Shown here one piece after another: positions 5,144 to 60,712 of a stretch of DNA of 64,000 nucleotides. The position numbers and the translations under genes are program-made. Position 1 is the stretch's first letter. The number at the start of each line of letters is the position of its first letter. The notes under the pieces were generated by a model that was given only the letters and a program-made list of their open reading frames with translations, did no database searches and had not been told where the DNA came from. Source of the stretch: Bacteroides sp. GTDB taxonomy: Bacteria > Bacteroidota > Bacteroidia > Bacteroidales > UBA7960. The stretch lies in assembly GCA_036351255.1 (NCBI GenBank), contig JAZBOS010000016.1:23715-87714 (forward strand). Reading direction: 5' to 3'.

Positions 5144-5230
5144 GCCCGGGTGGCGGAATTGGTAGACGCGTTGGTCTCAAACACCAATGGTAGCAATACC
5201 GTGCCGGTTCGATCCCGGCCCCGGGTACCA
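5144..5230 (+). tRNA. tRNA-Leu (anticodon CAA)
   Basis: 87 nt, hand-folded. Acceptor GCCCGGG/CCCGGGU, anticodon stem UUGGU/ACCAA with loop CU-CAA-AC, long variable arm (class II), T arm GCCGG-UUCGAUC-CCGGC, encoded CCA end. Confidence 0.9.
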
Positions 5231-27446: not shown

Positions 27447-28066
27447 GATCTGAGATAAAAGAAAAGCATCAGCATTACGCCAATGCCCATAATGTATCCC
27501 GCAAACACCTGGGATAATTTGTGGGCGTTGAGTTTTACGCGTGCAGTACCCAGCAATCCTGAGGCCAGGAATGCGGCAATGATCAGCCAGTCAATATTGA
27601 GGTGGAGCAGCATGGCCAGGCTGATCAGGAAGCCCGTTAAACCACCCATGGATACCATATGAATACTGATTTTCCAGCGGTAAGTGATGATGAGGGTTAG
27701 CAGGATGAGAATGGTGGCCCCAATCACATAAAAATACAGAAGGGAGGGCAGGGCAATTTTTCGCAGGAGGTAATAGGTGATAAAGAAATAAATGGCCGAG
27801 AGCAAGAGCGGCACCATTCGTTCGCTGCGCTCATCGAGCAGGATGTCGCGGATCATCCCGGTCTTTTTCAGCAACAGGATGGATAATACCGGAGCTACGG
27901 CCGTATTGATGAACAAGATCAGGAGGATCATTCCCTTGGCTTTGGGTGTCAGGCTGTAGGAAAGATAGGTGTTCAGCTGAAAAAGAATGATCAGTCCCAG
28001 GGTAGGGATGATCAGGGGATGCAGGACCACGGAAAGAAAACGGGCAACAGGGGTTTCGATCTTCAT
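27443..28066 (-). CDS. integral membrane protein, PAP2-like phosphatase superfamily (tentative)
   Basis: Six TM segments. KISIHMVSMGG and ARVKLNAHKLSQV resemble PAP2 motifs C2/C3. Its start overlaps the rpoN stop by 1 nt. Confidence 0.5.
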   Translation of the reverse strand: MKIETPVARFLSVVLHPLIIPTLGLIILFQLNTYLSYSLTPKAKGMILLILFINTAVAPVLSILLLKKTGMIRDILLDERSERMVPLLLSAIYFFITYYLLRKIALPSLLYFYVIGATILILLTLIITYRWKISIHMVSMGGLTGFLISLAMLLHLNIDWLIIAAFLASGLLGTARVKLNAHKLSQVFAGYIMGIGVMLMLFFYLRS

Positions 28067-29559
28067 CAGGAAAGTTCCTTTCGCAACCTGGCCACGGGAA
28101 TATCCAGTTGCTCGCGGTACTTGGCCACCGTACGGCGTGCAATGTTGTAACCCCTGTTCTTTAAAATGGCAGCCAATTCTTCGTCGGTGACCGGCTTATT
28201 TTTGTCTTCGGCTTCCACACAATCCTGCAGGATCTTTTTCACCTCGCGGGTGGACACCTCTTCTCCCGATTCATTCTGCATCGACTCAGAGAAAAAGGTT
28301 TTCAGGAGGAAGGTACCATAGGGGGTCTGAACATATTTGCTGTTGGCCACCCTGGAAATTGTGGAAATGTCGAGTTTGACGATATCGGCAATGTCCTTCA
28401 GGATCATGGGTCGCAGTTTCGTCTCATCCCCGGTCAGGAAATATTCCTTCTGGTATTTGAGAATGGCTTCCATCGTGACCAGTAAGGTATTCTGCCGTTG
28501 GCGGATGGCATCAATGAACCACTTTGCGCTGTCGAGTTTCTGCTTGACAAACAACAGCGCTTCCTTCTGTCTTGAGTCGACCTTTCCTTTTGATTCGGCC
28601 ATGGTCTCGAGCATCTCAGAATAGGTGCGATTGATGCGCAGGTCCGGGGCATTGCGGGAATTCAGAGATAGTTCTATTTCCTCATCGCTGACGGTGATAT
28701 AGAAGTCGGGCACAATATACTGCGAAGCTTTGCCGGAGTCGCTCAGGGAGTTACCCGGTTTGGGATTGAGCTTCAGAATCTCATCGATGGCCTCTTTGAG
28801 TTCATCATCACTGAAGTTGTGCTTTTTCTGAATCTTATCAAAATGCTTTTTGGTGAAATCATTGAAGTTCTTTTCGAGCAAGAGGGTAGCATTAACCACG
28901 GTGGGGGTTCGTGGGGTTTTACGCCGGATTTGCAGCAAAAGACATTCCTGGAGGTCGCGGGCACCTACGCCAGGAGGATCAAATTGCTGAATCACCCTGA
29001 TCAGGCCTAACACTTCCTTAAAATTGCTCTTGATATTCTGGTTGAATGCCAGGTCATCAATCAGCGAATGAATATCGCGCTGCAAATATCCCGATTCATC
29101 AATATTCCCTATGATATGGGTTGCAATCAGTTGTTCCCTCTCATTGAGTTTTCGCAGGCCAAGCTGAGCCAGCAAAAGCTCCTGAAAGCTGGTTCCTGAA
29201 GCAAAAGGGATCTCCCTGTGTTCATCGTCGGCGCTGGTGTTTTGGGCATTCAGACGGTAGGCTGGGATTTCGTCATCGTCGATATAGTCGCTCAGGTCAA
29301 ACTCATCATCCTGATTGCGTTCGGGTTCATCTTTACCCATATCGTCATCCGCCCCATCCAAAGATTCATCAAAATCATCAAACTGATCTTCGATTTCTTC
29401 GGCATCATCGGGGCCTTCCTCAAGCGCAGGATTTTCTTCGATTTCCTGCTTTATCCGCTGTTCGAGCAAAACGGTAGGCACCTGCAAAAGCTTCATGAGC
29501 TGAATCTGCTGGGGAGACAGCTTTTGCAACAGCTTTTGTTGAAGTCTCTGTTTAAGCAT
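28066..29559 (-). CDS. rpoN: RNA polymerase sigma-54 factor
   Basis: N-terminal Gln/Leu-rich region I, an acidic region II, and the C-terminal RpoN box ARRTVAKYR. Confidence 0.95.
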   Translation of the reverse strand: MLKQRLQQKLLQKLSPQQIQLMKLLQVPTVLLEQRIKQEIEENPALEEGPDDAEEIEDQFDDFDESLDGADDDMGKDEPERNQDDEFDLSDYIDDDEIPAYRLNAQNTSADDEHREIPFASGTSFQELLLAQLGLRKLNEREQLIATHIIGNIDESGYLQRDIHSLIDDLAFNQNIKSNFKEVLGLIRVIQQFDPPGVGARDLQECLLLQIRRKTPRTPTVVNATLLLEKNFNDFTKKHFDKIQKKHNFSDDELKEAIDEILKLNPKPGNSLSDSGKASQYIVPDFYITVSDEEIELSLNSRNAPDLRINRTYSEMLETMAESKGKVDSRQKEALLFVKQKLDSAKWFIDAIRQRQNTLLVTMEAILKYQKEYFLTGDETKLRPMILKDIADIVKLDISTISRVANSKYVQTPYGTFLLKTFFSESMQNESGEEVSTREVKKILQDCVEAEDKNKPVTDEELAAILKNRGYNIARRTVAKYREQLDIPVARLRKELS

Positions 29560-29670: not shown

Positions 29671-31086
29671 TTAAAATTCTGCATTCTGGGGCGTTCTCGG
29701 AAATGGGATGACATCACGGATGTTTCCCATACCGGTCACAAACAGCATCAGACGTTCAAATCCCAGCCCAAAACCGCTGTGCGGAGCGGTGCCAAACTTC
29801 CGGGTATCCAGATACCACCACACATCCTGCTCATGAATACCCATTTCCTTAATTTTTCCATACAATTTGTCGTAATCCTCTTCGCGCTGAGAACCACCGA
29901 TGATCTCACCGATCTTGGGAAAGAGCACATCCATGGCTCGAACGGTTTTCCCATCGTCATTAAGTTTCATATAAAAAGCCTTGATCTCTTTTGGATAATC
30001 CGTGAGAATAACCGGCTTCTTAAAATGTTTCTCCACCAGGAAGCGCTCATGCTCGGCCTGCAGGTCAACACCCCAGCTTACCGGGAACTCGAATGGATGA
30101 CCCGAGGACATCAGAATCTCAATCGCTTTGGTATAGGTCAGGCGTTCAAAAGTGTTGTTGATGACAAAGTTGAGCCGTTCGATTAATTCATTGTCATACA
30201 TTTTTTGCAGGAACTCCAAGTCATCGGGGCAGTTTTCGAGCAAATAGCGGATCAGATACTTGAGGAAATCCTCAGCCAGATCCATGTTATCCTTAATGTC
30301 GTAAAAGGCCATTTCGGGTTCTATCATCCAGAACTCGGCCAGGTGGCGGGTTGTATTTGAGTTTTCGGCCCTGAAGGTTGGTCCGAAGGTATAAATGCTT
30401 GAAAGTGCAAGGGCGCCGAGCTCGCCTTCCAGTTGTCCTGAAACGGTCAGGTTTGTTTCCTTCCCAAAAAAATCCTGAGAGAATTCGATCTTCCCTTCCG
30501 GCGTCCGTGGCAGGTTGTCAAGGTCGAGGGTGGTTACCCTGAACATGGCACCTGCCCCTTCAGCATCCGAACCAGTAATGATGGGGGTGTGAAGATAATA
30601 AAAGCCACGGTCGTTGAAGTATTTGTGAATGGCAAAAGCCAGGGCGTGACGAATGCGAAAGATGGCGCCAAAAGTATTGGTGCGGGGGCGCAGGTGGGCG
30701 ATCTCGCGTAAAAACTCAAGGGTATGCCCCTTCTTCTGCAAGGGATATTTTTCGGGATCAGCACCACCATACAATTCAATTTCGCTGGCGATGATCTCGA
30801 GCGATTGACCCTTGCCCTGGGATTCCATCAGACGTCCATTGACCGAAATACACGATCCGGTATTAACCTGCCTCAACAGCTCGTCATTGTTAAATGTCTG
30901 AACATCCACAACAACCTGGATATTATGTATGATGGAACCATCGTTGAGCGCAATAAAATTCACGTTTTTATTGCCGCGCCGGGTCCTGACCCAGCCTTTG
31001 ACGTTCACTTCCTGGCCGATCAGATGGTTGGCATTTCCCTTCAACAAATCAAAAATTCTTTGTCTTTTCAGTCCTTGCATTTTCAT
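29671..31086 (-). CDS. asnS: asparagine--tRNA ligase
   Basis: Class IIb aaRS: OB-fold N-terminus, motif 2 [21 protein letters not shown], and motif 3 GFGLGFERL. Confidence 0.95.
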
Positions 31087-31439
31087 TTCAATGTTTTTGC
31101 CAATTTACCTGTGCTATTTGGGCTACAAAAATAACACAATTCCTGGTATTCCGGCGTTGAAGGTTTTATGCTGTTTTTCTGTTCAATCATTTAAAAAAAA
31201 TTAAGTGAAAAATATTTTTTCTGATTCAAAAAAGCTATTTATAAAATTTTTTATTAATATTGTCCTAATAATAGTCTGGTATATGTGCATTCCTTTGCCT
31301 GACTTTCAACAAAAACCATAACCAGTGCCCTGACAGTGGGTTTTCCTTTACGGATAAATTAAAGACAGGATAGGTTTCGCCTGAATTAAATTCATCCTGA
31401 TTTCAGCAATATTATTCAAACCAACCAAAACCAGCATTT

Positions 31440-34379
31440 ATGAACCGAAGATCTTTACTTCTTTTGATGCTGTTTTTATTACCTGCTTTAGCTTTCGGGC
31501 AAAGGATCACGGTAACGGGAACAGTAACCTCGGTGATGGAGAACAACATTTCCCTTCCCGGCGTCACGGTCATGGTAAAAAACACTAGCCAGGGGACCAC
31601 TTCCGATATCAATGGAAGATACCGGGTCGAAGCCAATGCCAACGATACCCTGGTATTTTCGTATGTAGGCATGGTTACTACAGAAATTCCGATTATGGGG
31701 CAGATCCAGATTGATGTGGGGATGGAACTCGATGTTGCCCGTCTGGGTGAAGTTATTGTAGTGGGATATGGTACTGAGTCGAGCCGCCTGGTATCGGGAT
31801 CATTGGGTGTGGTAAGTGAAACGGAAATCCGCGATGTCCCGCTGCGTACCATTGATGGGGTGCTTCAGGGCCGTTCGGCAGGGGTGCAAATCAGCCAGAA
31901 CTCGGGGACCCCTGGTTCGGCAACCACGGTAAGGATTCGGGGTAACAGCTCCATTACAGCCGGCAACCAACCTTTATACGTCATCGATGGCATCCCCATG
32001 ATCACCGGAAACTATGGGCAGGTTGGATTCTCGGGGCAGGGCATCAATGCCCTTTCCGACATCAACCCCAGCGACATTGAATCTATCACTGTTCTGAAAG
32101 ATGCTTCGGCAGCTGCCATTTACGGGGCAAGGGCCACCAATGGGGTCATCCTTATCACCACCCGCCGTGGTAGTAAGCAGCGTACCAACATCACCTTCAA
32201 TGCAAGCAGTGGCATCCAGGAAGTTGTCGAAGTGCAGGAAATGATCAATGCCGAGCAGTGGCATGAATATAAAGGTACTCAGCCCGATCCTGGCAATCCT
32301 GTCGACGTAGACTGGCTTGATAAGGTATTCAGGGTGGCTCCGATGAGCAGCTATGAGTTTTCGGCCAGCGGAGGCGACGCTTCCACACGGTTTTTCATTT
32401 CAGGAAACTATTACAACCAGGAAGGCGTCCTGCTGGGTACTGATTACCAGCGTTTGAACGGGCGGCTTAACCTGGATCACACCATGAATGAACACGTGAA
32501 ACTGGGGGCAAGTTTCGGGGCAAGTTATTCCCTGAACAACCGGGTAGAGGGCGACCGCTCATTGAACGGGGTTTTGCCCAACGCCCTGACCATGCCTCCC
32601 ATTCACCCCGTTTATAATGAAGACGACACATACAATGAAGACGGCCCCTATGCCAACCCGGTAGCCATTGGCAAGGAAGCCATCAACGAGGCCCATTCAT
32701 TCAGAACCCTTGGAAATGCCTTTGTTGACATAACCTTTTTAAAACATCTTACGGTAAGTACAAAGTGGGGTTTTGACTATTTGAGCCTTCGTGAACACAG
32801 CTTTGATCCACCAACGACCCGGCAGGGAGCCCGTTCAAACGGGATTGGCATTGCAGGTCAGAACAATGTATTAAATATTGTATCAAACAACCTGTTGCGG
32901 TACAGCAATTCGTTCAAGGGTCTTCATAATCTGGAAGCACTAGCTGGTTATTCATTCGAGATATTTCAGCGGCGCAACCAATACGCCCGTGGCGTGGATT
33001 TTCCGGGGCCATTTTTTGAATACCTTGCCGAAGCAGCTACGATTACATCCTCTTATGCGAGAGCAGTGAATCGGGGCATGAGCTCATATTTCGGGCAAGT
33101 AAAATACAACTACGACTATCGTTACATTGTTACGCTGAGTGGAAGGTATGACGGTTCAACCAAATTTGGTGAGAACAACAAATATGGTTTTTTCCCGGCC
33201 GTCTCCCTGGCCTGGAGGGTTACTGAAGAGTCCTTTTTTCAGCCACTCAACGATATCTTTGACGAATTCAGAATGAGGGCCAGTTATGGCCTTACCGGTA
33301 ATGATGGCATCCCGGATTTTGCCTATCTGAATTTATATGGAGGCGGTGCCAATTATCTGGGAGGAGCAGGCATTGTGCCATCACAGCTTCCAAATCCTGA
33401 TTTGAAATGGGAAACAACAGCCCAGATCAATGTCGGACTTGATCTGGCCGTTTTGGATGAGCGGATTAGCCTGGCAGTGGACTATTATCACAACCGGACA
33501 AAGGACCTCTTGTTCGACCGGCCGGTTTCCATGACCTCTGGTTTCTATTCTATCACCACCAATATTGGAGAGCTGGAAAACCGTGGAATTGAACTATCAC
33601 TGACAACTGTCAATGTGCGAACCGAAGCGTTTGAATGGGATTCACGCTTAAACATCAGCCGCAACCGGAATAAGATCCTTTCGCTTTACAAAAACCAGCC
33701 ACTTGACAACCTTGACCGCTACAGCCCAAGCATTGTCATGGTAGGTGAGCCCATGAGTATATTTTTCGGGTACAGGAGCCTTGGCGTAGACCCCTCCACC
33801 GGCGATATCGTGTTTGATGACGTTAATGGTGATGGAATAATTAATGCTGAGGACCGCGTCAAAATCGGGGACCCCAATCCAAAATTCACCGGAGGCTTTA
33901 CCAACAATTTAACTTATAAGCAGTTTGAGCTGAGTTTGTTCCTGCAGTTCTCTTATGGCAATGATATTTTCAACGCGAACCGGGTATTCATAGAGGCCAT
34001 GAAAGGCGCTGACAACCAAAGCACAGCCATCCTGAGGCGCTGGCGTCAGCCCGGGGATATTACAGATATTCCAAGGGCCACCGAGAACGACCCAAACAAC
34101 AACAACCGCATTTCTTCGCGCTTTGTTGAAGATGGCTCCTACCTGAGGATAAAAAACCTGACCTTCTCCTATCTTCTGAACCAGCGACTGGCAGAAAGAC
34201 TGAAATTAAGAAGCACCAGAATCTTTTTATCTGCACAGAATCTGCTGACTTTTACCAATTATTCGGGTATGGATCCCGAAGTGAACTATACTGGTGACAG
34301 CAACCTGTTAAGGGGAACCGATTTCTTCACCTATCCCCAGGCCAGGACTTTTTCTATTGGTATTAATTTGGGATTATAA
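31440..34379 (+). CDS. SusC/RagA-family TonB-dependent outer-membrane transporter
   Basis: Signal peptide, CarboxypepD_reg-like domain (ITVTGTVTS..PGVTVMVKNT..GTTSDINGRY), TonB box/plug (EVIVVGYG), a 22-strand barrel, and a C-terminal aromatic residue. No STN domain. Confidence 0.95.
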   Translation: MNRRSLLLLMLFLLPALAFGQRITVTGTVTSVMENNISLPGVTVMVKNTSQGTTSDINGRYRVEANANDTLVFSYVGMVTTEIPIMGQIQIDVGMELDVARLGEVIVVGYGTESSRLVSGSLGVVSETEIRDVPLRTIDGVLQGRSAGVQISQNSGTPGSATTVRIRGNSSITAGNQPLYVIDGIPMITGNYGQVGFSGQGINALSDINPSDIESITVLKDASAAAIYGARATNGVILITTRRGSKQRTNITFNASSGIQEVVEVQEMINAEQWHEYKGTQPDPGNPVDVDWLDKVFRVAPMSSYEFSASGGDASTRFFISGNYYNQEGVLLGTDYQRLNGRLNLDHTMNEHVKLGASFGASYSLNNRVEGDRSLNGVLPNALTMPPIHPVYNEDDTYNEDGPYANPVAIGKEAINEAHSFRTLGNAFVDITFLKHLTVSTKWGFDYLSLREHSFDPPTTRQGARSNGIGIAGQNNVLNIVSNNLLRYSNSFKGLHNLEALAGYSFEIFQRRNQYARGVDFPGPFFEYLAEAATITSSYARAVNRGMSSYFGQVKYNYDYRYIVTLSGRYDGSTKFGENNKYGFFPAVSLAWRVTEESFFQPLNDIFDEFRMRASYGLTGNDGIPDFAYLNLYGGGANYLGGAGIVPSQLPNPDLKWETTAQINVGLDLAVLDERISLAVDYYHNRTKDLLFDRPVSMTSGFYSITTNIGELENRGIELSLTTVNVRTEAFEWDSRLNISRNRNKILSLYKNQPLDNLDRYSPSIVMVGEPMSIFFGYRSLGVDPSTGDIVFDDVNGDGIINAEDRVKIGDPNPKFTGGFTNNLTYKQFELSLFLQFSYGNDIFNANRVFIEAMKGADNQSTAILRRWRQPGDITDIPRATENDPNNNNRISSRFVEDGSYLRIKNLTFSYLLNQRLAERLKLRSTRIFLSAQNLLTFTNYSGMDPEVNYTGDSNLLRGTDFFTYPQARTFSIGINLGL

Positions 34380-34382
34380 AAC

Positions 34383-35738
34383 ATGAAAACAATGAAACGT
34401 ATCATTTTCCTGATATCAATTTTTGTAATGGTTTTCCCGGGTTGCGACGTGTTGAACGTTGACCCAAACCATTCCATTCCGGCCGATCAGGCCATCACCA
34501 ATGCCGAAGAAGTGGAGCGGGGCATCATCGGCTGTTACGATGCGATGCAAAGTGGCAGTTACTATGGTTTACACTATTTCGTTTTTGGCGACCTTCTTGC
34601 CGATAATCTAAGGTTTTCCGGGGTGACTATCAGTTATGCCGAATTGGACAATAATTCCATCCTGGCTGACAATGGGCTGGTAGAAGGGGTTTGGGCCTCC
34701 ATTTATGACCTACTGAACCGGGTTAATAATGTGGTCGCACAGATTCCAGGTATTGAATCCATGAGCGATGCTGAGAAAAATGCGGCCCTCGCTGAGTTAT
34801 ATTTCCTTAGGGCATTAGGGCATTACGACCTTATGCGGCTTTACGGTCCCATACCACTGAGAACAGAACCCGCTTCGGGAGATGAAGAAAGTCTCAATAA
34901 ACCCAGGGAGTCCATTGAGGTAGTTCTAAGCCAGATCAACACCGACCTGGATTTTGCCATTAGCCATCTTGCATCGGAAATTATTACAGGAAGGGCTTCC
35001 AGTGTTGCTGCCCGGGGATTAAAGGCCAGGGTTGCCTTACACCAGTACTACCTGACCAGCGATCAGACCTTCCTGACGACTGCAAAGGAAAATGCAAGCG
35101 CAGTGATCGACAATCCCAATCTTGAGATTGAACCGGATTACAGTATTTTGTTTTCAGGGGTTGCAAACCGTGAGTCGATTTTTGAGATTGATTTCAATGA
35201 ACAGGACTGGAATCGCATGGCACAGTATTTCTTTTACACCTCTCTTAGCGGACGTTACGAGTTTGCCCCCACCGAGTTTTACCTGAACTCCTTTGCGCCT
35301 GACGATGTCCGTAAAGACATCTCTATTGAATATTATGGTGCAAATCCTTATGTGTATAAATATTCAGACATTGAGACCGGCACCGATAATATTTATGTGC
35401 TTCGGCTCGCCGAGATGCATCTGATCCGTGCCGAAGCGGAGATCCTGTTGCAAGGCGATCTGGAGGCCATACGCGCTGATATTAACGCCATCAGGGAAAG
35501 GGCAGGTCTGATTCCCACCACCAGTTCAAATTATGCGGCTTTGCTGCTTGAAGTGGAATCACAGCGCCAGAAAGAGTTTGCCTTTGAAGGGCACCGATGG
35601 TTCGACCTGGTAAGGACCGGCAGGGCCTTGGATGTTCTACCAAACGTGACCAACATCAACCAAACCCTTTTTCCGATCCCACTCAACGAAATCCTGGCCA
35701 ATGACAACCCGGGAATGTTTCAAAACGAGGGTTATTAA
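34383..35738 (+). CDS. SusD/RagB-family outer-membrane lipoprotein
   Basis: Lipobox (VFPGC). TPR-like SusD features (RALGHYDLMRLYG, RAE, KEFAFEGHRWFDLVRTG, PIP..E). Starts 3 nt after susC. Confidence 0.95.
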   Translation: MKTMKRIIFLISIFVMVFPGCDVLNVDPNHSIPADQAITNAEEVERGIIGCYDAMQSGSYYGLHYFVFGDLLADNLRFSGVTISYAELDNNSILADNGLVEGVWASIYDLLNRVNNVVAQIPGIESMSDAEKNAALAELYFLRALGHYDLMRLYGPIPLRTEPASGDEESLNKPRESIEVVLSQINTDLDFAISHLASEIITGRASSVAARGLKARVALHQYYLTSDQTFLTTAKENASAVIDNPNLEIEPDYSILFSGVANRESIFEIDFNEQDWNRMAQYFFYTSLSGRYEFAPTEFYLNSFAPDDVRKDISIEYYGANPYVYKYSDIETGTDNIYVLRLAEMHLIRAEAEILLQGDLEAIRADINAIRERAGLIPTTSSNYAALLLEVESQRQKEFAFEGHRWFDLVRTGRALDVLPNVTNINQTLFPIPLNEILANDNPGMFQNEGY

Positions 35739-35757
35739 TTGCTAACGAGAAAAACGA

Positions 35758-36657
35758 ATGGCTATGCAAACACGAAAAACATACGGCATGATAGGATCCA
35801 TCATGATGACTATGATCATGCTATTTTCCTCATGCGAGGATGAAGGATTTGACGTTCCCCTTCCAAGTACACAAGCCGACTTTGATTATGAAGTTGAGGT
35901 ATTTATTGACGAGGACACGGGGCAAGAGTCTTTTGGGGTGCAATTGACCAATAAATCCATCGAGGCAGAATCCTATTCCTGGGATTTCGGTAATGGGGAA
36001 ACCTCAACCGAAGAAAATCCCTATATCTTATACACTACATCGGGACAGTATACAATCAGGCTTGAAATAACCAGCGCCCATCAGTTGCATTACAACAACC
36101 TGACCAAAAGCGTTACCTTAACACTTGGGAAACAGGTTGTCTATGCTGAGGACTTTTTAGACGGTGTTCCCGACAATGATGAATTCTGGCTTCCCGAAGG
36201 ATGGCAAGCAATTGATAATGACGGAGATGGTTTTAACTGGTATTTTGCCGTCAGAAATGGTTTAGGACAAATGCGTAGCCAGTCCTACGATTCTTCAAAC
36301 GACGCAGCCCTTAATCCTGACAACTGGCTGATTCTGCCAGAAATTGACCTAACCACCACTGCTGATGGCGCACTTGTCACCTTCAGGTATACGGTTGGGG
36401 TTTCCGCATCTACCCCCAGATACCGAAAAGAACATTATGGTATTTTTGTTTCAGCAGGCAATGATGCCCTGGAGAATTTCACCCTGCTTTTCGAGGAAAC
36501 CTTCACTGAAGAAACGCCCCAATGGACCGCTTTGGAAAGAACCGTTGATCTCTCAGCATATGCCGGGGAAACCATTTACGTGGCCATTCGCCATTATGGA
36601 GTCACCGACATGGACCGTATGTTTGTGGATGAGGTGGAAGTTTATAAAATTGAGTAA
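35758..36657 (+). CDS. surface lipoprotein with a PKD-like domain and a choice-of-anchor-J/cleaved-adhesin-like domain
   Basis: Lipobox (LFSSC). PKD motif YSWDFGNGETS..YTTSGQYTIRLEI. C-terminal W..IDNDGDGFNWYF..NPDNWLILPEIDL..YVAIRHYG..FVDEVEV. Confidence 0.7.
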   Translation: MAMQTRKTYGMIGSIMMTMIMLFSSCEDEGFDVPLPSTQADFDYEVEVFIDEDTGQESFGVQLTNKSIEAESYSWDFGNGETSTEENPYILYTTSGQYTIRLEITSAHQLHYNNLTKSVTLTLGKQVVYAEDFLDGVPDNDEFWLPEGWQAIDNDGDGFNWYFAVRNGLGQMRSQSYDSSNDAALNPDNWLILPEIDLTTTADGALVTFRYTVGVSASTPRYRKEHYGIFVSAGNDALENFTLLFEETFTEETPQWTALERTVDLSAYAGETIYVAIRHYGVTDMDRMFVDEVEVYKIE

Positions 36658-36672
36658 GATATTTGTGGTTTT

Positions 36673-36702
36673 AAAAAGCCAGCGCAATGCTGGCTTTTTT
36701 TT
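36673..36702 (+). terminator. intrinsic terminator between the Sus-like genes and cyanophycinase
   Basis: Stem agccagc/gctggct, 5-nt loop, then an 8-T run, flanked by an upstream A-run. Confidence 0.8.
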
Positions 36703-36729
36703 ATTTTCGCATAACCAAAACACAACGAC

Positions 36730-37590
36730 ATGAGAATTCTGATATTATTTTTTTCGGTTCTTTTTCTGATGGCTTCCTGTCAATCGCCTGAAACGGGGAA
36801 TGAGGATGTTTCTGAAGCCCCCAAGGGCAGTTTGTTTATTATAGGTGGCGGCAGTCGCCCGGATGCCATGGTGCAGCGGATGGTCACCGAATCAGGGGTG
36901 GATCAAACAGGATATGTGGTCATTCTTCCCATGGCCTCCAGTGAGCCCGATTCGGCTATCCTGTGGTCAGCCCAGCAATTTCTGGATAATGGTGTCAGCC
37001 CGGTGGTGGGGTTCAATTTTTTGCCGGGTATGATTCCTGGTGAGGCTCGTCTGGATTCCCTCAGAAAGGCGTCCCTGATCTATATTAGTGGAGGCGATCA
37101 GAACCGGTTCATGGATATTGTGAGAGGCACACCAATTGCGGATGCTATCCATGAAGCTTATTTGTCAGGGGCATTGATTGCCGGCACCAGTGCGGGCGCG
37201 GCCCTGATGAGCGGAAAAATGATTACGGGCACTGAATTGAAATATCCCGATTACCGGCCCACTTTCCGCAGCCTGGAATCAAACAACCTTGAACTTGAGC
37301 CGGGTTTGGGGCTTATTCATACAGCGATTGTGGATCAGCATTTTGTTTGGCGCAGCCGTCACAATAGACTGCTTTCAGCGATCCTTGAGTATCCTGACCT
37401 ACTGGGCATTGGCATCGATGAATCGACAGCCCTGCTGGTGAAGGGTAATTCAGCTGAAGTGATCGGACTTTCGCAGGTAATGGTATACGCCAATCCCTTG
37501 AAAAAAGTAAATAACATAAATGGAAAACTGGGCGCCACCGGCCTGACACTGGATATTTATTTGCCGGGCGAAAAATTTTCACTCAAATAA
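36730..37590 (+). CDS. cyanophycinase (peptidase S51) with lipoprotein signal peptide
   Basis: Lipobox (LMASC). LFIIGGG, ISGGDQNRF, the nucleophile motif GTSAGAA, and VDQHFVWRSRHNRLL match cyanophycinase (CphB/CphE) signatures. Confidence 0.85.
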   Translation: MRILILFFSVLFLMASCQSPETGNEDVSEAPKGSLFIIGGGSRPDAMVQRMVTESGVDQTGYVVILPMASSEPDSAILWSAQQFLDNGVSPVVGFNFLPGMIPGEARLDSLRKASLIYISGGDQNRFMDIVRGTPIADAIHEAYLSGALIAGTSAGAALMSGKMITGTELKYPDYRPTFRSLESNNLELEPGLGLIHTAIVDQHFVWRSRHNRLLSAILEYPDLLGIGIDESTALLVKGNSAEVIGLSQVMVYANPLKKVNNINGKLGATGLTLDIYLPGEKFSLK

Positions 37591-37602
37591 TTCGGTATTC
37601 CT

Positions 37603-39222
37603 ATGCTGAAGAAAGTTCCCCACACCTATGTAATCGTTTTCGGCATCATCTTGTTTGCCGCTGCGCTCACCTGGTTTATTCCCCCCGGAAAATATGTTGA
37701 GCAGAAAGTGGTTCGGGATGGTGTTGACAAAAAGGAAATGGTCTTTTATTATGAAAAGGACCTTCCGGATGCTTTTCAGCCTGAGAGCCCCAGCCAGCCA
37801 CAGACATGGCAGGTATTTTCAGCCCTTTTCAATGGGTTTGTGAAACAGTCAGGCATTATCATTTTCATTTTAATGATTGGCGGGGCCTTCTGGATCATGA
37901 ATAAGACCAAGGCCATTGATGTGGGGATCTTTGCTTTCCTTCGTTTTACCCGGATGCTGGAAAGCCGGAACATCATGCACCGCAATGTGGTGGACAATGT
38001 GATCATTGTCCTGATCATGATCATGTTCAGCTTGTTTGGGGCCATCTTCGGCATGAGTGAAGAAACCATTGCCTTTGTGATTATTGTCATCCCCCTTGCC
38101 ATATCCATGGGCTATGATTCCTTCACCGGGGTGGCCATGGTATACCTTGCAGCCCACCTGGGCTTTGCGGGGGCGGTGTTGAATCCTTTTACCATAGGCA
38201 TCGCACAAGGCATAGCTGAGATTCCCCTGTTTTCAGGGATGGGTTACCGGATCTTTTGCTGGGTGGTGATCAACCTGGTAGGGATCTTTTTTGTGCTGCG
38301 TTATGTCAGCCGGATCCGGAAAAAGCCTTCGCTCTCAATCATGTATGAGGGAGATGCCTACTGGCGCAATCGGGATGGAGCACATAACGAGAAGATCACC
38401 TATTTTACACCCAGGATGGCATGGATCGTCTATGGCATGATCCTGGCTACCTTGACAGCCTTTTCTTTCCTTTATCCGGTTACGGGGCTTAAGATTGGTA
38501 ACTCCACCGTTTCATTATTAATCATTCCGGCACTTACTATTGTTTTTGCCATCCTAGGGGTGCTCTCTCTGCGTAAATCCGTCCACTTTTTTATCCTGCT
38601 CTTACTGGGTTACACCATTCTTTTCCTGATGGTAGGTGTAATGGGTTATGGCTGGTACATCATGGAAATCGCCACCTTGTTTTTTGTCATGGGAATTGCA
38701 GCTGGTATGGCCTATAACTTTTCGGCCGATATTATTGCCAAACAATTCCTGGAAGGAGTGAAGGACATCCTTTCAGCGGCCATTATTGTAGGTCTTGCCC
38801 GTGGTATTATTGTTATCCTGGAGGATGGAGGGATTGTTGACACGCTGCTGTACGGCATGTCGAAAGCCATGGTAAACTTCGGCGACATTGCTTCCATCGG
38901 GGTGATGTATGTCATTCAAACCCTGATCAACATTGTTATCCCTTCGGGTTCTGCCAAAGCGGCCATTACCATGCCGATCATGGCACCTTTCAGTGATCTG
39001 ATAGGCATTTCACGTCAGGCAACGGTCATGGCTTTCCAGTTTGGGGATGGATTTACCAATATGATCACGCCTACCTCCGGCGTATTGATTGCCGTCTTAG
39101 GTGTGGCACGGATTCCCTATGACAAATGGGTACGATGGGTTTGGCCACTCATTGTAACCGTAGTGATCCTGGGATTCCTGTTACTAATTCCCACCGTAAC
39201 GATGAAGCTCAGTGGCTTTTAA
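37603..39222 (+). CDS. YfcC-family (DcuC-like) inner-membrane carrier
   Basis: 539 aa, about 12 TM segments. N-terminal KKVPHTYVIVFGIILFAA..W.IP.G.Y and PSGSAKAA.TMPIMAP are YfcC-type motifs. Starts 12 nt after cyanophycinase. Confidence 0.8.
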   Translation: MLKKVPHTYVIVFGIILFAAALTWFIPPGKYVEQKVVRDGVDKKEMVFYYEKDLPDAFQPESPSQPQTWQVFSALFNGFVKQSGIIIFILMIGGAFWIMNKTKAIDVGIFAFLRFTRMLESRNIMHRNVVDNVIIVLIMIMFSLFGAIFGMSEETIAFVIIVIPLAISMGYDSFTGVAMVYLAAHLGFAGAVLNPFTIGIAQGIAEIPLFSGMGYRIFCWVVINLVGIFFVLRYVSRIRKKPSLSIMYEGDAYWRNRDGAHNEKITYFTPRMAWIVYGMILATLTAFSFLYPVTGLKIGNSTVSLLIIPALTIVFAILGVLSLRKSVHFFILLLLGYTILFLMVGVMGYGWYIMEIATLFFVMGIAAGMAYNFSADIIAKQFLEGVKDILSAAIIVGLARGIIVILEDGGIVDTLLYGMSKAMVNFGDIASIGVMYVIQTLINIVIPSGSAKAAITMPIMAPFSDLIGISRQATVMAFQFGDGFTNMITPTSGVLIAVLGVARIPYDKWVRWVWPLIVTVVILGFLLLIPTVTMKLSGF

Positions 39223-39227
39223 ACTCG

Positions 39228-40088
39228 CTATTCTATCTCGATGACCAGGTATTTGGAAGCACTCCAGAACTTGGTTGGGTCCAGAATCACCAAATAAGTA
39301 ACCTCATCCTCCACTCTATATTCCCAGGTTCCTTCAGGATGGGGAGTAATAAAAATGGGGTTTTGTCCGGCTACGGTAATTTCACGCGTCTGGGTTATAT
39401 CGATCCGGGTAAAATTGGTATGGTCAAAACTGGAGTTCAGCCTGTTGGTTCTTCCAATGCCTAGAAAGCCCCCTTCACGGGTAATAATGCCCCAGTCAAT
39501 TAGTTCACGACGCGAGCCCATCGTGTAAAAGGCTGTGTTCATTTCAGAGATTTTCTCCTCAATGATCTGTTCGCGTTGGCTTGCGACTTGCTGAAGGGTG
39601 TCGACGGTAGCCGATAAATAATCCACCCGAAGGTTCATCTGTCCTAATTGCTCCTTAAGATTTCCAATCTCCAGTTCTTTTTCATCAATTTGTTCATTGA
39701 GGCGGGTAACCATCTTTTCAAACTCGGCCACCTTCACGTTGGAATTGCTGATATCCCGGTTCAGCCGATTGATCAACTGTCGGTTTTTCTCCATCAGTTC
39801 ACCAATCATACGGATATCTTCATTGATATGATCCATCATATCACTATTCCCTTCGAGGTCGTTTTGAGTTCCCTCTGAAATGATATTCTCTTTTTCCTTG
39901 ATCAAGGCAAGGTTTTCTTCAATTTCATTCAGTGACCCAAAGAAGTCATTAAAAGTTTCATCTTTGGTGGCCAACTGATCTTTCAGTTCCAGGTTCTCTT
40001 GCTGCAGGCGGTCCACTTCTTCCTGGCTTTTCTGACCGCAAGAGGCAAGCATAAGTGCCATAAAGGCAAGCAATATCATTCTTTTCAT
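39228..40088 (-). CDS. coiled-coil lipoprotein, function unknown
   Basis: Lipobox (LMLASC), about 170 aa of heptad-rich Glu/Leu/Asn/Gln sequence, then a C-terminal beta-rich domain. Confidence 0.6.
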   Translation of the reverse strand: MKRMILLAFMALMLASCGQKSQEEVDRLQQENLELKDQLATKDETFNDFFGSLNEIEENLALIKEKENIISEGTQNDLEGNSDMMDHINEDIRMIGELMEKNRQLINRLNRDISNSNVKVAEFEKMVTRLNEQIDEKELEIGNLKEQLGQMNLRVDYLSATVDTLQQVASQREQIIEEKISEMNTAFYTMGSRRELIDWGIITREGGFLGIGRTNRLNSSFDHTNFTRIDITQTREITVAGQNPIFITPHPEGTWEYRVEDEVTYLVILDPTKFWSASKYLVIEIE

Positions 40089-40242: not shown

Positions 40243-41376
40243 TCAGAAACAATGCGACATGCAATTCCACATGCGTTCGGCGGTTTTTTCCCATGAAAAG
40301 CGGGCACGAATCAACTTGCCGTTTTCAATCAGCGTTCTCCTTAATACCTGGTCTCTAACGATGTCTTGCATTGCACGGCTGATCTGTCCAATTTCGTGTG
40401 GGTCGACAAGCAGGGCTGCATTGCCAGCCACTTCGGGCATGCTGGTAACATTGGATGAGATTACAGGGACCTCGCAATGCATGGCTTCAATGATGGGAAT
40501 GCCAAATCCTTCAAAAAAGGAAACCAGCAGCAAGGCCTGTGAAGAGGCTACCACCTTGCTCAGTTGTTCTTTATAAAGCCTGCCCACAAAAATAATATCG
40601 TCCTTATAGGACATAGCGCTCAGCACCTTTTGAAATCCATTAGACCCAAACATGTGTTCACCGATGATCACCATCTTGTGGTTTTCCCGGTCTGTCTTTT
40701 TAAAGGCATCGAAAGCCAGAAGCATATTGTCAATATTCTTCCGCTTATGAAGCGAGCCCACATAGACAAAATAAGGACAACCTCCGGTATATTGCCGGCG
40801 AGTTTCTTCGGCAACGGCTACACTTACCGGTTTAAAGTCTTCGTTAACCCCGTTATACACCACATCAATTTTTTCGGGAGGATAACCAAAGGTGTTGGCA
40901 ATATCTTGTCTTGAATATTCAGAAACGGTGGCTACACGGCAGGCCTTTTCGGCAAAACGTGGGAAGCGGGCACGATAATATTTACTGCTCAGCCAGGGCA
41001 GGTAATCGGGGTTGTGAATAAAGTTCAGATCGTGAAAAACAGGTATCTGAGGGCCTTCCCAGCTTAGAGACAACATCCCGTCAGGCGAAATAAACAGGTC
41101 AGGGCCAATCTTATTCAGGTAGGCTGGCAAGGCTTTCTCAAAGAAGAGGTAATAAAGGATTGGATGCCGGGCCTGGGGAAACAAAACCACAGGCTTGATA
41201 TTGTCGGAAAAAACAAATTCCTGGTTGAAGGGCCGATCGAAGATGAAATGAAATTCCACCTCGGGATGATTCAGGGCAATACGTTTAAAGGTCTGGTAAG
41301 TAAACCAGCCAATTCCCTCTAGTTTTCCGGGCAACAGCAAGCGGGTATTTATAGCAACCTTAAGGCTCACAACCAA
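40243..41376 (-). CDS. glycosyltransferase family 4
   Basis: GT-B fold with a C-terminal E..FGIPIIEAM..G.PVI.S EX7E-type motif. There is no ATG start; candidates are TTG 41376 or GTG 41370. Confidence 0.85.
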   Translation of the reverse strand: MVVSLKVAINTRLLLPGKLEGIGWFTYQTFKRIALNHPEVEFHFIFDRPFNQEFVFSDNIKPVVLFPQARHPILYYLFFEKALPAYLNKIGPDLFISPDGMLSLSWEGPQIPVFHDLNFIHNPDYLPWLSSKYYRARFPRFAEKACRVATVSEYSRQDIANTFGYPPEKIDVVYNGVNEDFKPVSVAVAEETRRQYTGGCPYFVYVGSLHKRKNIDNMLLAFDAFKKTDRENHKMVIIGEHMFGSNGFQKVLSAMSYKDDIIFVGRLYKEQLSKVVASSQALLLVSFFEGFGIPIIEAMHCEVPVISSNVTSMPEVAGNAALLVDPHEIGQISRAMQDIVRDQVLRRTLIENGKLIRARFSWEKTAERMWNCMSHCF

Positions 41377-58042: not shown

Positions 58043-60712
58043 ATGGAGAATAAATCTGCATTTCCGGATGCACAGAGTGAGATTGGACAGGAAAAAGAGA
58101 ATCAGAATCTGTACAACCAAGTGCTAGATCAGCGAAGCAGGCCTGACATTCAAGAAGAACCAAAGGTTCGGCCAGAAGATGTTGAACCCACGTTCAAGAA
58201 GTATGCTTTTGAAGAGGCACTGAAAAAAACCACCGAATATTTCAGGGGCGATAGCCTGGCGGCGGGAGTCTGGGTCAACAAATACGCCCTGAAAGACTCT
58301 GACGGCAACCTTTATGAGCTGACCCCTGAGGATATGCACTGGCGCATTGCCCGTGAACTTGCACGCATTGAAAAGAAATACCCCAACCCCCTGGATGCCG
58401 AGACCATTTTCAAGGCCCTCGACCGCTTTAAGTACATCGTACCCCAGGGCAGTCCCATGGCCGGCATCGGCAACCCCTTTCAGATCGGATCACTCTCCAA
58501 CTGCTTTGTCATTGGCAACAAAGGCGAAGCCGACTCTTACGGCGGCATCATGAAAGTCGATGAGGAACAGGTTCAACTGATGAAACGCCGCGGTGGCGTT
58601 GGTCACGACCTCTCCCACATCCGACCCAAGGGAAGCCCCGTAAAAAACAGCGCGCTGACCTCCACCGGACTGGTGCCCTTCATGGAACGCTATTCCAATT
58701 CCACCCGCGAGGTCGCACAGGATGGTCGCCGCGGCGCCCTGATGCTCACCGTCTCCGTCAAGCACCCCGACGCCGAAAGCTTTATCGACGCCAAACTCGA
58801 ACAGGGCAAGGTGACGGGTGCCAATGTCTCGGTGAAGATCACCGACGAGTTCATGCAGGCTGTCGTCGACCAGGAAGACTTTGTCCAGCAGTATCCCATT
58901 CAGGCCAGCGAGCCTAAATACATCAAGCGCATCAACGCCAACGAGCTCTGGAAAAAAATCGTTCACAACGCCTGGCGTTCGGCCGAGCCCGGCATCCTGT
59001 TCTGGGACACCATCCTGCGCGAATCCGTGCCCGACTGCTATGCCGACCAGGGCTTCCGTACCGTTTCGACCAACCCCTGCGGCGAGATCCCGCTGTGCCC
59101 TTACGACAGCTGCCGATTGCTAGCCATAAACCTGTACAGCTATGTCAACCAGCCCTTTACCAGCAAAGCCAACTTCGACCACGGCCTGTTTAAAAATCAT
59201 GTGGCACTGGCACAACGCATCATGGACGACATCATCGACCTGGAGCTGGAAAAAATTGACCGCATCATCGAAAAGATTGATACCGACCCCGAACTTGAGG
59301 AAGTGAAACGGGTGGAGAAAGACCTGTGGATGAAAATCCGCCAGAAGTGTATCGAAGGCCGCCGTACCGGCATTGGCATCACCGCCGAAGGCGATATGCT
59401 GGCCGCACTGGGTTACCGTTACGGCACTGAAGAAGCCACCGACTTCTCGGTCAACGTACACAAAACCCTCGCCCTGGCCGCTTACCGTTCTTCCGTTGAC
59501 CTGGCCGCCGACAGGGGTTCCTTCCCGATTTACGACAGCAGCCGCGAAGCAAACAACCCCTTCATTCAGCGCCTGCGCGATGCTGACCCCAAACTCTATG
59601 CCGACATGCAGCAGCACGGCCGACGCAACATCGCCCTGCTGACCATTGCCCCCACCGGAAGCGTCTCCCTCCTCACACAGACCACCTCGGGCATAGAACC
59701 GGTGTTTATGGTAGCCTACAAGCGCCGCCGCAAGGTCAACCCCAACGACAAGAACGTTCGCGTGGACTTTGTCGATGAGATTGGCGACCACTGGGAAGAA
59801 TACAACGTATTCCACCACAAATTCATCGACTGGATGAAGGCCAACGGCCACGATGAAGAAAAGCTGGTCCATATGAAGGAAAGCGAGCTGCAGGACGTCA
59901 TCCGCCAGTCGCCCTTTTACAAGGCCACTGCCAACGATGTCGACTGGGTGGCCAAGGTGACCATGCAGGGTGCTGTCCAGAAATGGGTCGACCATTCCAT
60001 CAGCGTCACCGTCAACGTGCCCAACAACGTCACCGAAGAACTGGTAGGCAAGATCTACCTGACCGGCTGGCAAAGCGGCTGCAAGGGCATCACCGTTTAT
60101 CGCGACGGCTCACGCTCCGGCGTTCTGGTGAAGGACACCAAAAAAGAAGACAAGCAGGAATTCAGGGAAACCAATGCTCCCAAGCGTCCCAAGATCCTGG
60201 AATGCGAAGTGGTGCGTTTCCACAACGACTCCGAGAAATGGCTTGCCGTAGTGGGCATCCTCAACGAACGCCCCTACGAAATATTTACCGGTAAAGCCGA
60301 TGGATTTTACCTCCCCGTTTATGTTGACAAAGGCTGGGTGATGAAGAACCGCAACGAAAACGGTGAAAGCCGCTACGACTTCCAGTTCCTCGACCGCGAT
60401 GGATACCGGGTCACCATTGAAGGCCTCTCGCGATCGTTCCACAAGGAATTCTGGAACTATGCCAAGCTCATCTCGGGCATCCTGCGCCACGGCATGCCCC
60501 TGCCCTCGGTGGTCGACGTCATCGAAGACCTGAGTCTCGACAGCGACCACCTGCATACCTGGAAAAACGGCGTGGTGCGTGCCCTGAAGAAATTCATTGC
60601 CGATGGTACCAAGGCCCACGGACGCGTCTGCAGCAAATGCAACCAGGAAACGGTGATCTACCAGGAAGGCTGCCTCATCTGCACCACCTGCGGCGAGAGC
60701 AAATGCGGCTAA
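58043..60712 (+). CDS. nrdJ: adenosylcobalamin-dependent ribonucleoside-diphosphate reductase (class II)
   Basis: 889 aa. Active-site TNPCGEIPL, radical-transfer region, and a C-terminal CxxC...CxxC zinc ribbon (CSKCN..CLICTTCG). Confidence 0.9.
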   Translation: MENKSAFPDAQSEIGQEKENQNLYNQVLDQRSRPDIQEEPKVRPEDVEPTFKKYAFEEALKKTTEYFRGDSLAAGVWVNKYALKDSDGNLYELTPEDMHWRIARELARIEKKYPNPLDAETIFKALDRFKYIVPQGSPMAGIGNPFQIGSLSNCFVIGNKGEADSYGGIMKVDEEQVQLMKRRGGVGHDLSHIRPKGSPVKNSALTSTGLVPFMERYSNSTREVAQDGRRGALMLTVSVKHPDAESFIDAKLEQGKVTGANVSVKITDEFMQAVVDQEDFVQQYPIQASEPKYIKRINANELWKKIVHNAWRSAEPGILFWDTILRESVPDCYADQGFRTVSTNPCGEIPLCPYDSCRLLAINLYSYVNQPFTSKANFDHGLFKNHVALAQRIMDDIIDLELEKIDRIIEKIDTDPELEEVKRVEKDLWMKIRQKCIEGRRTGIGITAEGDMLAALGYRYGTEEATDFSVNVHKTLALAAYRSSVDLAADRGSFPIYDSSREANNPFIQRLRDADPKLYADMQQHGRRNIALLTIAPTGSVSLLTQTTSGIEPVFMVAYKRRRKVNPNDKNVRVDFVDEIGDHWEEYNVFHHKFIDWMKANGHDEEKLVHMKESELQDVIRQSPFYKATANDVDWVAKVTMQGAVQKWVDHSISVTVNVPNNVTEELVGKIYLTGWQSGCKGITVYRDGSRSGVLVKDTKKEDKQEFRETNAPKRPKILECEVVRFHNDSEKWLAVVGILNERPYEIFTGKADGFYLPVYVDKGWVMKNRNENGESRYDFQFLDRDGYRVTIEGLSRSFHKEFWNYAKLISGILRHGMPLPSVVDVIEDLSLDSDHLHTWKNGVVRALKKFIADGTKAHGRVCSKCNQETVIYQEGCLICTTCGESKCG

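Follow-up and report, generated by a model that had tools for sequence, protein, structure and literature searches.

A predicted Sus-type cyanophycin utilisation locus in a Bacteroidales genome

Which substrate is served by a SusC/SusD import system that has no carbohydrate-active enzyme (CAZyme) beside it and is followed by a predicted cyanophycinase? This question is raised by a block of five genes on contig JAZBOS010000016.1 (GenBank assembly GCA_036351255.1; Bacteroides sp., order Bacteroidales, lineage UBA7960), from which a stretch of 64,000 nucleotides (positions 23,715 to 87,714, hereafter the window) was analysed. In cyanobacteria, cyanophycin serves as a major store of nitrogen and carbon. 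With a probability of roughly 0.7, the five genes were interpreted as a Bacteroidota cyanophycin utilisation locus, orthologous to that of the Salinivirga cyanobacteriivorans type, which would serve for scavenging the polymer from lysed cyanobacteria of the mat. A previous examination of the same DNA without database searches (the sequence-only reading) had proposed five same-strand open reading frames (ORFs) forming a candidate locus of this kind. All five were found on the + strand where it had placed them, and its proposal is supported by the conserved linkage of the genes, by the active site of the S51 enzyme and by the presence of the isoaspartyl dipeptidases IadA or IaaA in orthologous loci.

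The five-gene block and its conservation

The features of the locus, in positions of the window, are as follows.

31087-31439: divergent intergenic region between asnS and susC (353 nt), the presumed susC promoter region
31440-34379, + strand: SusC/RagA-family TonB-dependent outer-membrane transporter (979 aa)
34383-35738, + strand: SusD/RagB-family surface lipoprotein (451 aa; 448 aa if the start is that of MKRIIFL)
35758-36657, + strand: surface lipoprotein with PKD and choice-of-anchor-J/Cleaved_Adhesin domains (299 aa), a candidate substrate-binding protein in a SusE/F-like position
36673-36707, + strand: intrinsic-terminator-like hairpin and T-tract between the PKD gene and the S51 gene
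36700-36729, + strand: conserved leader TTTATTTTCGCATAACCAAAA upstream of the S51 gene, possibly a separate promoter for S51-yfcC
36730-37590, + strand: predicted CphB-type S51 cyanophycinase with a lipoprotein signal peptide (286 aa; Cys17)
37603-39222, + strand: YfcC/DcuC-family inner-membrane carrier (539 aa)

The genes for SusC and SusD lie in the same orientation with a gap of 3 nt, and those for S51 and YfcC are separated by 12 nt. A domain search identified no glycoside hydrolase, polysaccharide lyase, carbohydrate esterase or sulfatase in the five genes and no CAZyme in their immediate flanks, and no hybrid two-component system, SusR or extracytoplasmic function (ECF) sigma/anti-sigma factor was found in the block or its flanks. 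The absence of both enzymes and regulators had been noted by the sequence-only reading.

The S51 protein of the window was scanned against one genome per prokaryotic species, yielding 52 loci that were compared by tblastn of the window proteins and by clustering of all neighbours. Homologues of SusC and/or SusD were found to flank the S51 orthologue in 41 of these (41 of approximately 46 with informative flanks), and six of the eleven loci lacking them lie on contigs that end at or near S51 (L020, L021, L040, L043, L044 and L046). The linked loci span at least four orders, namely Bacteroidales, Flavobacteriales, Cytophagales and Chitinophagales, with SusC proteins in the S51-anchored set mostly 50-74% identical to that of the window, which is orthologue level across orders. 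Cultured carriers include Psychroserpens luteus, P. burtonensis, Subsaximicrobium wynnwilliamsii, Aequorivita antarctica, Gelidibacter japonicus, Christiangramia gaetbulicola and C. lutea; metagenome-assembled genomes (MAGs) of Bacteroidales, Chitinophagales and one of Roseivirgaceae are among the uncultured carriers. The gene ahead of S51 ends at -4 to +6 nt from the S51 start in approximately twenty loci, implying co-transcription. When SusD was used as the anchor, all six relatives sampled on long contigs (81, 61, 59, 56, 54 and 52% identity) were located in a SusC-SusD-PKD/Cleaved_Adhesin-S51 cluster. As the linkage is recovered from both the S51 and the SusD anchor, the adjacency can be regarded as a conserved functional unit, and the arrangement recurs far beyond chance in dozens of independent genomes. 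The sequence-only reading had made its proposal depend beforehand on recurrence in other Bacteroidota, which was found to be strong, and its caveat that the genes were linked by adjacency only is overturned by these counts and by the tight junctions.

Comparison of the window with loci L054, L055 and L133-L138 gave identities of 65-89% for SusC, 52-81% for SusD, 36-71% for the PKD/choice-of-anchor-J protein, 59-78% for S51 and 67-91% for YfcC. The PKD lipoprotein is the fastest-diverging gene of the block, its C-terminal domain being replaced by DUF5050 in other orders, and across the compared loci SusC orthologues of 50-89% identity adjoin S51 orthologues. One contig labelled as a Halorubrum sp. 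MAG (L009, PWGU01000081.1) was observed to carry a Bacteroidota SusC-SusD-PKD-S51 cluster whose proteins are essentially those of the Bacteroidales MAG locus L010; this contig is probably mis-binned.

Orthologous loci were found to differ in architecture. That of the Bacteroidales, to which the window belongs, consists of SusC (979 aa, no STN domain), SusD, the PKD/choice-of-anchor-J protein, the S51 lipoprotein and YfcC, optionally preceded by IadA. This enzyme (TIGR01975, 466 bits) is encoded directly upstream of SusC in L002, L005, L010, L135 and L137 and within the loci L002, L005, L010 and L135-L137, and IaaA (PF01112) is encoded within L039, L049 and L045. In the Flavobacteriaceae/Roseivirgaceae type, an ECF sigma factor and FecR precede an STN-bearing SusC of approximately 1097 aa, SusD and two PKD/DUF5050 lipoproteins, which in Flavobacteriaceae loci occupy the position of the window PKD protein. 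These are followed by a short S51 with a Sec signal, a secreted M20 peptidase and an S51 paralogue of approximately 426 aa with a sorting domain of the type IX secretion system (T9SS). The ECF sigma-FecR module with an STN-bearing SusC was seen in L013 and others, and also in L136. A third arrangement, SusC-SusD-IaaA-S51-YfcC, is that of Christiangramia. None of the versions among the orthologous loci examined contains a CAZyme, and every enzyme added to the locus belongs, by its family assignment, to cyanophycin or isoaspartyl-peptide breakdown.

The M20 protein (PF01546 and PF07687, approximately 440 aa, with a signal peptide) follows the short S51 in L011 and L013-L034 (e.g. L013:10827-12149), with a gap of 1-4 nt in most Flavobacteriaceae loci. 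Among the S51-anchored loci, YfcC and the secreted M20 are mutually exclusive, with YfcC co-occurring with the cytoplasmic IadA or IaaA. This complementarity fits two end-games, namely import of the dipeptide with a cytoplasmic split, or a split in the periplasm. As the isoaspartyl dipeptidase of Bacteroidota has been described as undiscovered (PMC10206079), the M20 protein is a candidate periplasmic beta-Asp-Arg hydrolase.

The enzyme, the lipoproteins and the carrier

The S51 protein scored 149.5 bits against the cyanophycinase model TIGR02069 (cut-off 126.6) and 31.7 bits against the PepE model (cut-off 156). The motifs GTSAGAA and VDQHFVWRSRHNRLL are present and, like the lipoprotein signal peptide, had been noted by the sequence-only reading. 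Alignment to the solved cyanophycinases 7uqv, 3en0 and 7uqw (E 3.5e-26 to 2.4e-21) placed the catalytic triad, in its GxSxG, DQH and GIDE contexts, at Ser154, His204 and Glu231 (with reference to 7uqv and 3en0) and the substrate pocket at Gln124, Asp202, Gln203, Arg208, Arg210 and Arg213. In the numbering of CphB, all nine of Gln101, Ser132, Asp172, Gln173, His174, Arg178, Arg180, Arg183 and Glu201 are conserved in the window enzyme and invariant in 44 orthologues. Where PMC3235067 quotes Law et al. 2009, Ser132 is given as catalytic and Gln101, Asp172, Gln173, Arg178, Arg180 and Arg183 as critical for cyanophycinase activity. The window S51 is a predicted CphB-type cyanophycinase, and the alternative of a dipeptidase-E-type enzyme, which the sequence-only reading had left standing, is contradicted at the level of sequence by the two model scores and the nine retained residues.

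S51 paralogues with T9SS sorting domains are of two types (approximately 426 aa and 655 aa; L013:12166-13446, L011:1317-3341, L050:7223-9184 and L136:13289-15286). They retain the Ser, the His, the acid, the Asp and at least two Arg residues, and carry Ser or Thr at the position of CphB Gln173. Extracellular CphE has Thr223 at the equivalent position (PMC3235067). In the fuller loci these paralogues probably act as the cyanophycinases that are secreted or displayed on the surface. By their residues, such loci combine a secreted CphE-like enzyme with a CphB-like one, and the window has only the latter.

The SusC protein was identified by TIGR04056 (863 bits) and the TIGR04057 signature, with CarbopepD_reg, Plug and TonB_dep_Rec_b-barrel domains that correspond to the SusC layout of N-terminal extension, plug and 22-strand barrel, and gave no hit to the STN domain. 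It matches solved SusC homologues over its full length, the closest chain being a 'SusC homolog' (8aa4/9sje, 549 bits), and RagA (6sli) was matched with 330 bits. SusD was recognised by PF14322 and PF07980 and has a lipobox ending in FPGC, followed by DVLNVD. In the PKD protein, a PKD_4 domain (PF18911) was found with a Cleaved_Adhesin (PF07675)/choice-of-anchor-J domain (NF038128, 77 bits) that resembles the gingipain adhesin domains 4itc and 3m1h; a lipobox is likewise present. Profiles and lipoboxes therefore bear out the identities that the sequence-only reading had given to all three proteins, including a SusC without STN.

The export signal of Bacteroidota surface lipoproteins lies just past the lipidated Cys and takes the form C-X-K-(D/E)2, SDDDD or SDDFE (PMC5080379). 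The mature N-terminus of the window PKD protein, CEDEGFD, matches this signal, and PKD lipoproteins have a mean of 2.7-2.9 acidic residues at positions +1 to +5 (e.g. CSDDDFP in relatives). The mature S51 protein begins with CQSPETG, which holds no export signal, and its orthologues have a mean of 1.0 acidic residues at the same positions; 23 of 47 have a Sec signal only, without any lipobox. The lack of an export signal, together with these orthologues, argues that S51 is most likely periplasmic, in which case it would act after import by SusCD, and SusCD would carry oligomers or dipeptides. The enzyme thus probably faces the periplasm from the outer membrane, acting downstream of SusCD, and is probably not the surface depolymerase.

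The carrier matches DcuC (PF03606, 340 bits) over its full length (residues 6-530), confirming its attribution to the YfcC/DcuC type. The YfcC model NF008611 gave 377 bits in two stretches, with the cut-off of 500 not reached, and on this sequence evidence the protein is a member of the family and not an equivalog of Escherichia coli YfcC. In a neighbour-joining tree, all S51-linked YfcC proteins of the Bacteroidales fall within one clade, and four further deep lineages are also S51-adjacent (L092, Phaeodactylibacter L042, Christiangramia L039/L049, and L048). Use of YfcC as a family-wide marker of cyanophycin was ruled out by unrelated contexts, the S51-linked members being one clade and a few deep lineages. 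Sister clades of the S51-linked proteins were observed directly downstream of a secreted C69-family dipeptidase (L065, L074, L078, L081 and L083), in some cases with an M14 carboxypeptidase nearby, which suggests that YfcC-family carriers of Bacteroidota are generally coupled to small-peptide breakdown. Based on its gene linkage, the YfcC of the window is a candidate importer of beta-Asp-Arg or its products; no connection between YfcC and cyanophycin was found in the literature.

The junction between the halves, and other explanations

The sequence-only reading had placed a terminator between the Sus half and the cyanophycinase half, and a terminator scan found a hairpin there (36673-36699; 12-bp stem, 3-nt loop) followed by a T-run, with a folding energy of -19 kcal/mol (z = -3.16 versus shuffles). 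It occurs only once in the window, ruling out a dispersed repeat. The hairpin is kept, with changes in stem and loop, in the full-synteny relatives L054 and L055, and is degraded in L053 and L001, both of which are without susCD-PKD. The leader TTTATTTTCGCATAACCAAAA is nearly identical in L054 and L055 and survives in L053 and L001 without the upstream operon; it contains TATTTTCG, one base off the TAnnTTTG -7 box of Bacteroidota. On the simplest reading, the hairpin ends the susC-susD-PKD transcript in the lineage of the window and S51-yfcC has its own start, with the genes forming a single operon in other lineages.

The only exact -7 box in the asnS-susC intergenic region lies on the minus strand facing asnS (31126-31133), and no exact + strand box was found upstream of susC, nor upstream of S51, where the one-mismatch candidate is the only one. 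Control by sigma-54 was suggested by the rpoN gene beside the locus and by an NtrC-type activator close to the L134 and L138 loci, but was provisionally rejected since no -24/-12 match lies upstream of susC or S51; across the window, 42 such matches were observed versus 38.7 expected by chance. The rpoN gene upstream of the locus is syntenic, and the second gene downstream of yfcC in L134 (14589-15962) and L138 (14577-15944) encodes a response regulator dependent on sigma-54, where the window has a GT4 glycosyltransferase.

In L001 (8141-10861) and L053 (5265-7988), the closest relatives of the window with flanking proteins approximately 90% identical, asnS is followed directly by S51-yfcC and the 5.3-kb susC-susD-PKD block is absent. 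Since L004, L007, L133, L134 and L138 have rpoN-asnS-susC synteny, the block was probably lost in the lineage of L001 and L053 and not gained in that of the window. Decay of S51 following this loss was considered but is not concluded: the S51 of L001 has an in-frame stop at codon 163, but that of L053 is intact.

Several observations weigh against the assignment of the locus to cyanophycin. The hairpin parts susC-susD-PKD from S51-yfcC in the window, and L001 and L053 demonstrate that the halves can persist apart. The nearest solved relatives of the SusC/SusD pair were deposited merely as 'SusC/SusD homolog' and not as peptide importers, and YfcC relatives at 58-67% identity adjoin RmuC, a secreted C69 dipeptidase or other genes in a YfcC-anchored metagenome scan. 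The 64-kb window encodes no CphE-like extracellular enzyme, and tblastn with representatives detected no homologue of IadA, IaaA or M20 in it, the lack of an isoaspartyl dipeptidase having already been pointed out by the sequence-only reading. Characterised cyanophycinases are exopeptidases yielding dipeptides (PMC3235067), which makes the origin of importable oligomers questionable and leaves the need for a SusCD pair to carry a dipeptide unclear. Three metatranscriptomes of the same sample gave zero reads over 31000-39600, and no experimental validation of any such locus was found in the searchable literature.

The best-surviving of the other explanations, which is nonetheless unlikely, is that the substrate is another Asp-containing or isoaspartyl peptide, taken up for example in the manner of the RagAB oligopeptide system, and that S51 is a peptidase of the dipeptidase-E type or of another S51 kind. 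Peptide import by a SusCD pair has a precedent in RagAB, the S51 family includes PepE and microcin C resistance enzymes (PMC9239234), IadA and IaaA have a broad specificity for isoaspartyl dipeptides (PMC10206079), and the C69 linkage of the YfcC sister clades points in the same direction. This explanation is opposed by the scores against the TIGR02069 and PepE models, by the presence of paralogues with the CphE-type Ser/Thr substitution, and by the three Arg residues and the Gln/Asp of the pocket, which are critical for cyanophycinase activity (PMC3235067) and invariant in 44/44 orthologues.

It is also improbable that the block represents two independent neighbouring units, one (susC-susD-PKD) importing a different substrate, for instance a glycan or ordinary peptides, and the other (S51-yfcC) scavenging cyanophycin fragments that enter through porins. 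The conservation of the terminator-like hairpin in the nearest relatives, the L001/L053 lineage, a possible separate promoter upstream of S51 and the generic entries of the nearest solved SusC/SusD structures would agree with such an arrangement. However, orthologous SusC/SusD proteins (45-89% identity) accompany S51 in the large majority of loci from both anchors, and the close junctions ahead of S51 imply co-transcription there. In Flavobacteriaceae the ECF-sigma/FecR/STN module brackets the SusCD and S51 genes together, and the lack of a CAZyme from every version of the locus likewise speaks against a glycan.

That S51 mobilises a cyanophycin reserve of the cell itself, as a CphB-like housekeeping enzyme beside unrelated transporters, is highly improbable, as its CphB-like Gln173 position and the occurrence of CphA1 with cyanophycinase in many Bacteroidota (PMC10206079) are outweighed by the signal peptide and lipobox (with Sec signals in orthologues), by which S51 leaves the cytoplasm, by the absence of cphA from the 64-kb window, in which the only other ORF of approximately 890 aa encodes a ribonucleotide reductase, and by conserved neighbours that are uptake genes.

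The surroundings of the locus are of a housekeeping nature, with rpoN (28066-29559) and asnS upstream and genes for a Cbp1-family lipoprotein, a GT4 glycosyltransferase, fructose-bisphosphate aldolase and prolyl-tRNA synthetase downstream. The GT4 protein (40243-41376) is biosynthetic and encoded on the strand opposite to the block. The Cbp1-family coiled-coil lipoprotein (39228-40088, - strand; NF052320, 216 bits) is convergent with yfcC across a gap of 5 nt; it is syntenic in close Bacteroidales relatives and absent from the locus in other orders, and is probably unrelated to the use of cyanophycin. An AbgT-family transporter (61336-62883, - strand; PF03806, 556 bits) is located 22 kb from the locus, and the ribonucleotide reductase ORF (58043-60712, 889 aa) lies within a stretch of higher G+C. 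An Rfam scan of the window identified a single tRNA (5144-5227) and no riboswitch near the locus.

The proposed pathway and its relation to known systems

If the five genes form a cyanophycin utilisation locus, the PKD/choice-of-anchor-J lipoprotein and SusD would capture cyanophycin-derived material at the cell surface, as suggested by gene position, the export signal and analogy with Sus binding proteins. SusC would then import soluble (beta-Asp-Arg)n oligomers or dipeptides with energy from TonB. The S51 lipoprotein, a cyanophycinase by its sequence and presumably facing the periplasm from the outer membrane, would cleave the oligomers to beta-Asp-Arg, and YfcC may move this dipeptide, or released arginine, over the inner membrane, as its gene linkage suggests. 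An isoaspartyl dipeptidase from another part of the genome, of the kind carried as IadA or IaaA by orthologous loci, would finally free Asp and Arg.

A broader proposal can be made tentatively, with the balance leaning against all of its three parts holding jointly. The loci would constitute a utilisome for a non-ribosomal polyamide, in which import of (beta-Asp-Arg)n by SusCD is coupled to trimming by a CphB-type lipoprotein that faces the periplasm; the S51-linked YfcC clade would be the first dedicated secondary carrier for beta-Asp-Arg; and the secreted M20 of Flavobacteriaceae, replacing YfcC and IadA, would be the undiscovered isoaspartyl dipeptidase of Bacteroidota referred to in PMC10206079.

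A 'cyanophycin utilization locus' that comprises cyanophycinases along with iadA and a transporter was described in Salinivirga strain L21-Spi-D4 by Ben Hania et al. 2017 (Environ Microbiol 19:1134), as relayed by Sharon et al. 2023 (PMC10206079), and a passage of PMC6243061 credits S. cyanobacteriivorans L21-Spi-D4 with two cyanophycinases, one having a Por secretion domain. The concept has been published since 2017, and the window holds a further locus of a known, computationally predicted type. The abstract of the original description is said to present a cyanophycin transport complex homologous to polysaccharide utilisation loci (PULs). The Salinivirga locus resembles that of the window in having SusC/SusD beside a cyanophycinase, no CAZymes and a proposed role in scavenging from dead mat cyanobacteria. 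With a Salinivirga MAG (L040/L050) as a proxy for the type strain, identities to the window were 51-53% for S51, 52% for SusC and 46% for SusD, and in L050 the order S51-SusC-SusD-PKD was found beside IadA and an S51 of 653 aa with a T9SS C-terminal sorting domain. In this MAG (Salinivirga sp. SMAG_U9159), S51 is split over the end of the L040 contig (residues 1-258) and the start of the L050 contig (146-285), and both contigs are probably parts of a single cyanophycin locus. The Salinivirga type differs in possessing iadA and a second, T9SS-bearing S51 of approximately 650 aa, with no YfcC within view. The window, in contrast, has YfcC, a PKD protein that ends in a choice-of-anchor-J domain instead of the other C-terminus, and an internal terminator, and lacks both iadA and a T9SS cyanophycinase.

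With classical Sus systems and PULs, the locus shares an adjacent SusC-SusD pair, a surface lipoprotein behind it at the SusE/F position and, in orthologous loci, an ECF-sigma/anti-sigma module with an STN-bearing SusC. It differs in that no version has a glycoside hydrolase, lyase, esterase or sulfatase, its enzymes being peptidases only (S51, M20, IadA/IaaA) and its predicted substrate a polyamide. RagAB of Porphyromonas gingivalis (6sli) is likewise a SusCD-family pair for a non-glycan peptide substrate, but is not the closest relative (330 versus 549 bits for 8aa4/9sje), takes up protein-derived peptides and has no link to S51. The window enzyme shares the S51 fold, the Ser-His-Glu triad and the Gln/Asp/Arg3 pocket with CphB of Synechocystis (3en0) and CphE of Pseudomonas anguilliseptica and P. 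alcaligenes. It also keeps Gln173 of CphB, which is cytoplasmic, whereas CphE is secreted, of approximately 44 kDa and has Thr at this position; the window S51 is a lipoprotein with a mature mass of approximately 29 kDa that probably faces the periplasm from the outer membrane. Dedicated import of cyanophycin dipeptide with intracellular hydrolysis in a non-producer has been described for AotJQMP-AotO (CphZ) of Pseudomonas aeruginosa (PMC9974463), which employs an ABC transporter and the M14-type CphZ, in contrast to the candidate YfcC/DcuC secondary carrier of the window and the absence from it of a dipeptidase, which in relatives is IadA or IaaA.

The DNA of the window was found only in microbial-mat metagenomes, as low-coverage contigs (approximately 3x). 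Many relatives derive from soda-lake sediments, mats and cold marine habitats, those of the Bacteroidales from mats, soda-lake sediments and digesters. These origins fit scavenging from cyanobacteria, and to our knowledge the recycling of cyanophycin by heterotrophs in mats and blooms is poorly documented. The window contributes a variant and comparative support to this picture and not a new principle; its distinctive features are YfcC, the candidate binding protein with a choice-of-anchor-J domain, the internal terminator and the lack of iadA and of a T9SS cyanophycinase. The locus type as a whole would represent the Sus paradigm, normally a glycan machine, repurposed for a polyamide, and it is widespread, being present in Bacteroidales and in cultured marine and polar Flavobacteriaceae. 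Among the latter, carriers of the genera Psychroserpens, Aequorivita, Gelidibacter, Subsaximicrobium and Christiangramia make the whole predicted pathway directly testable.

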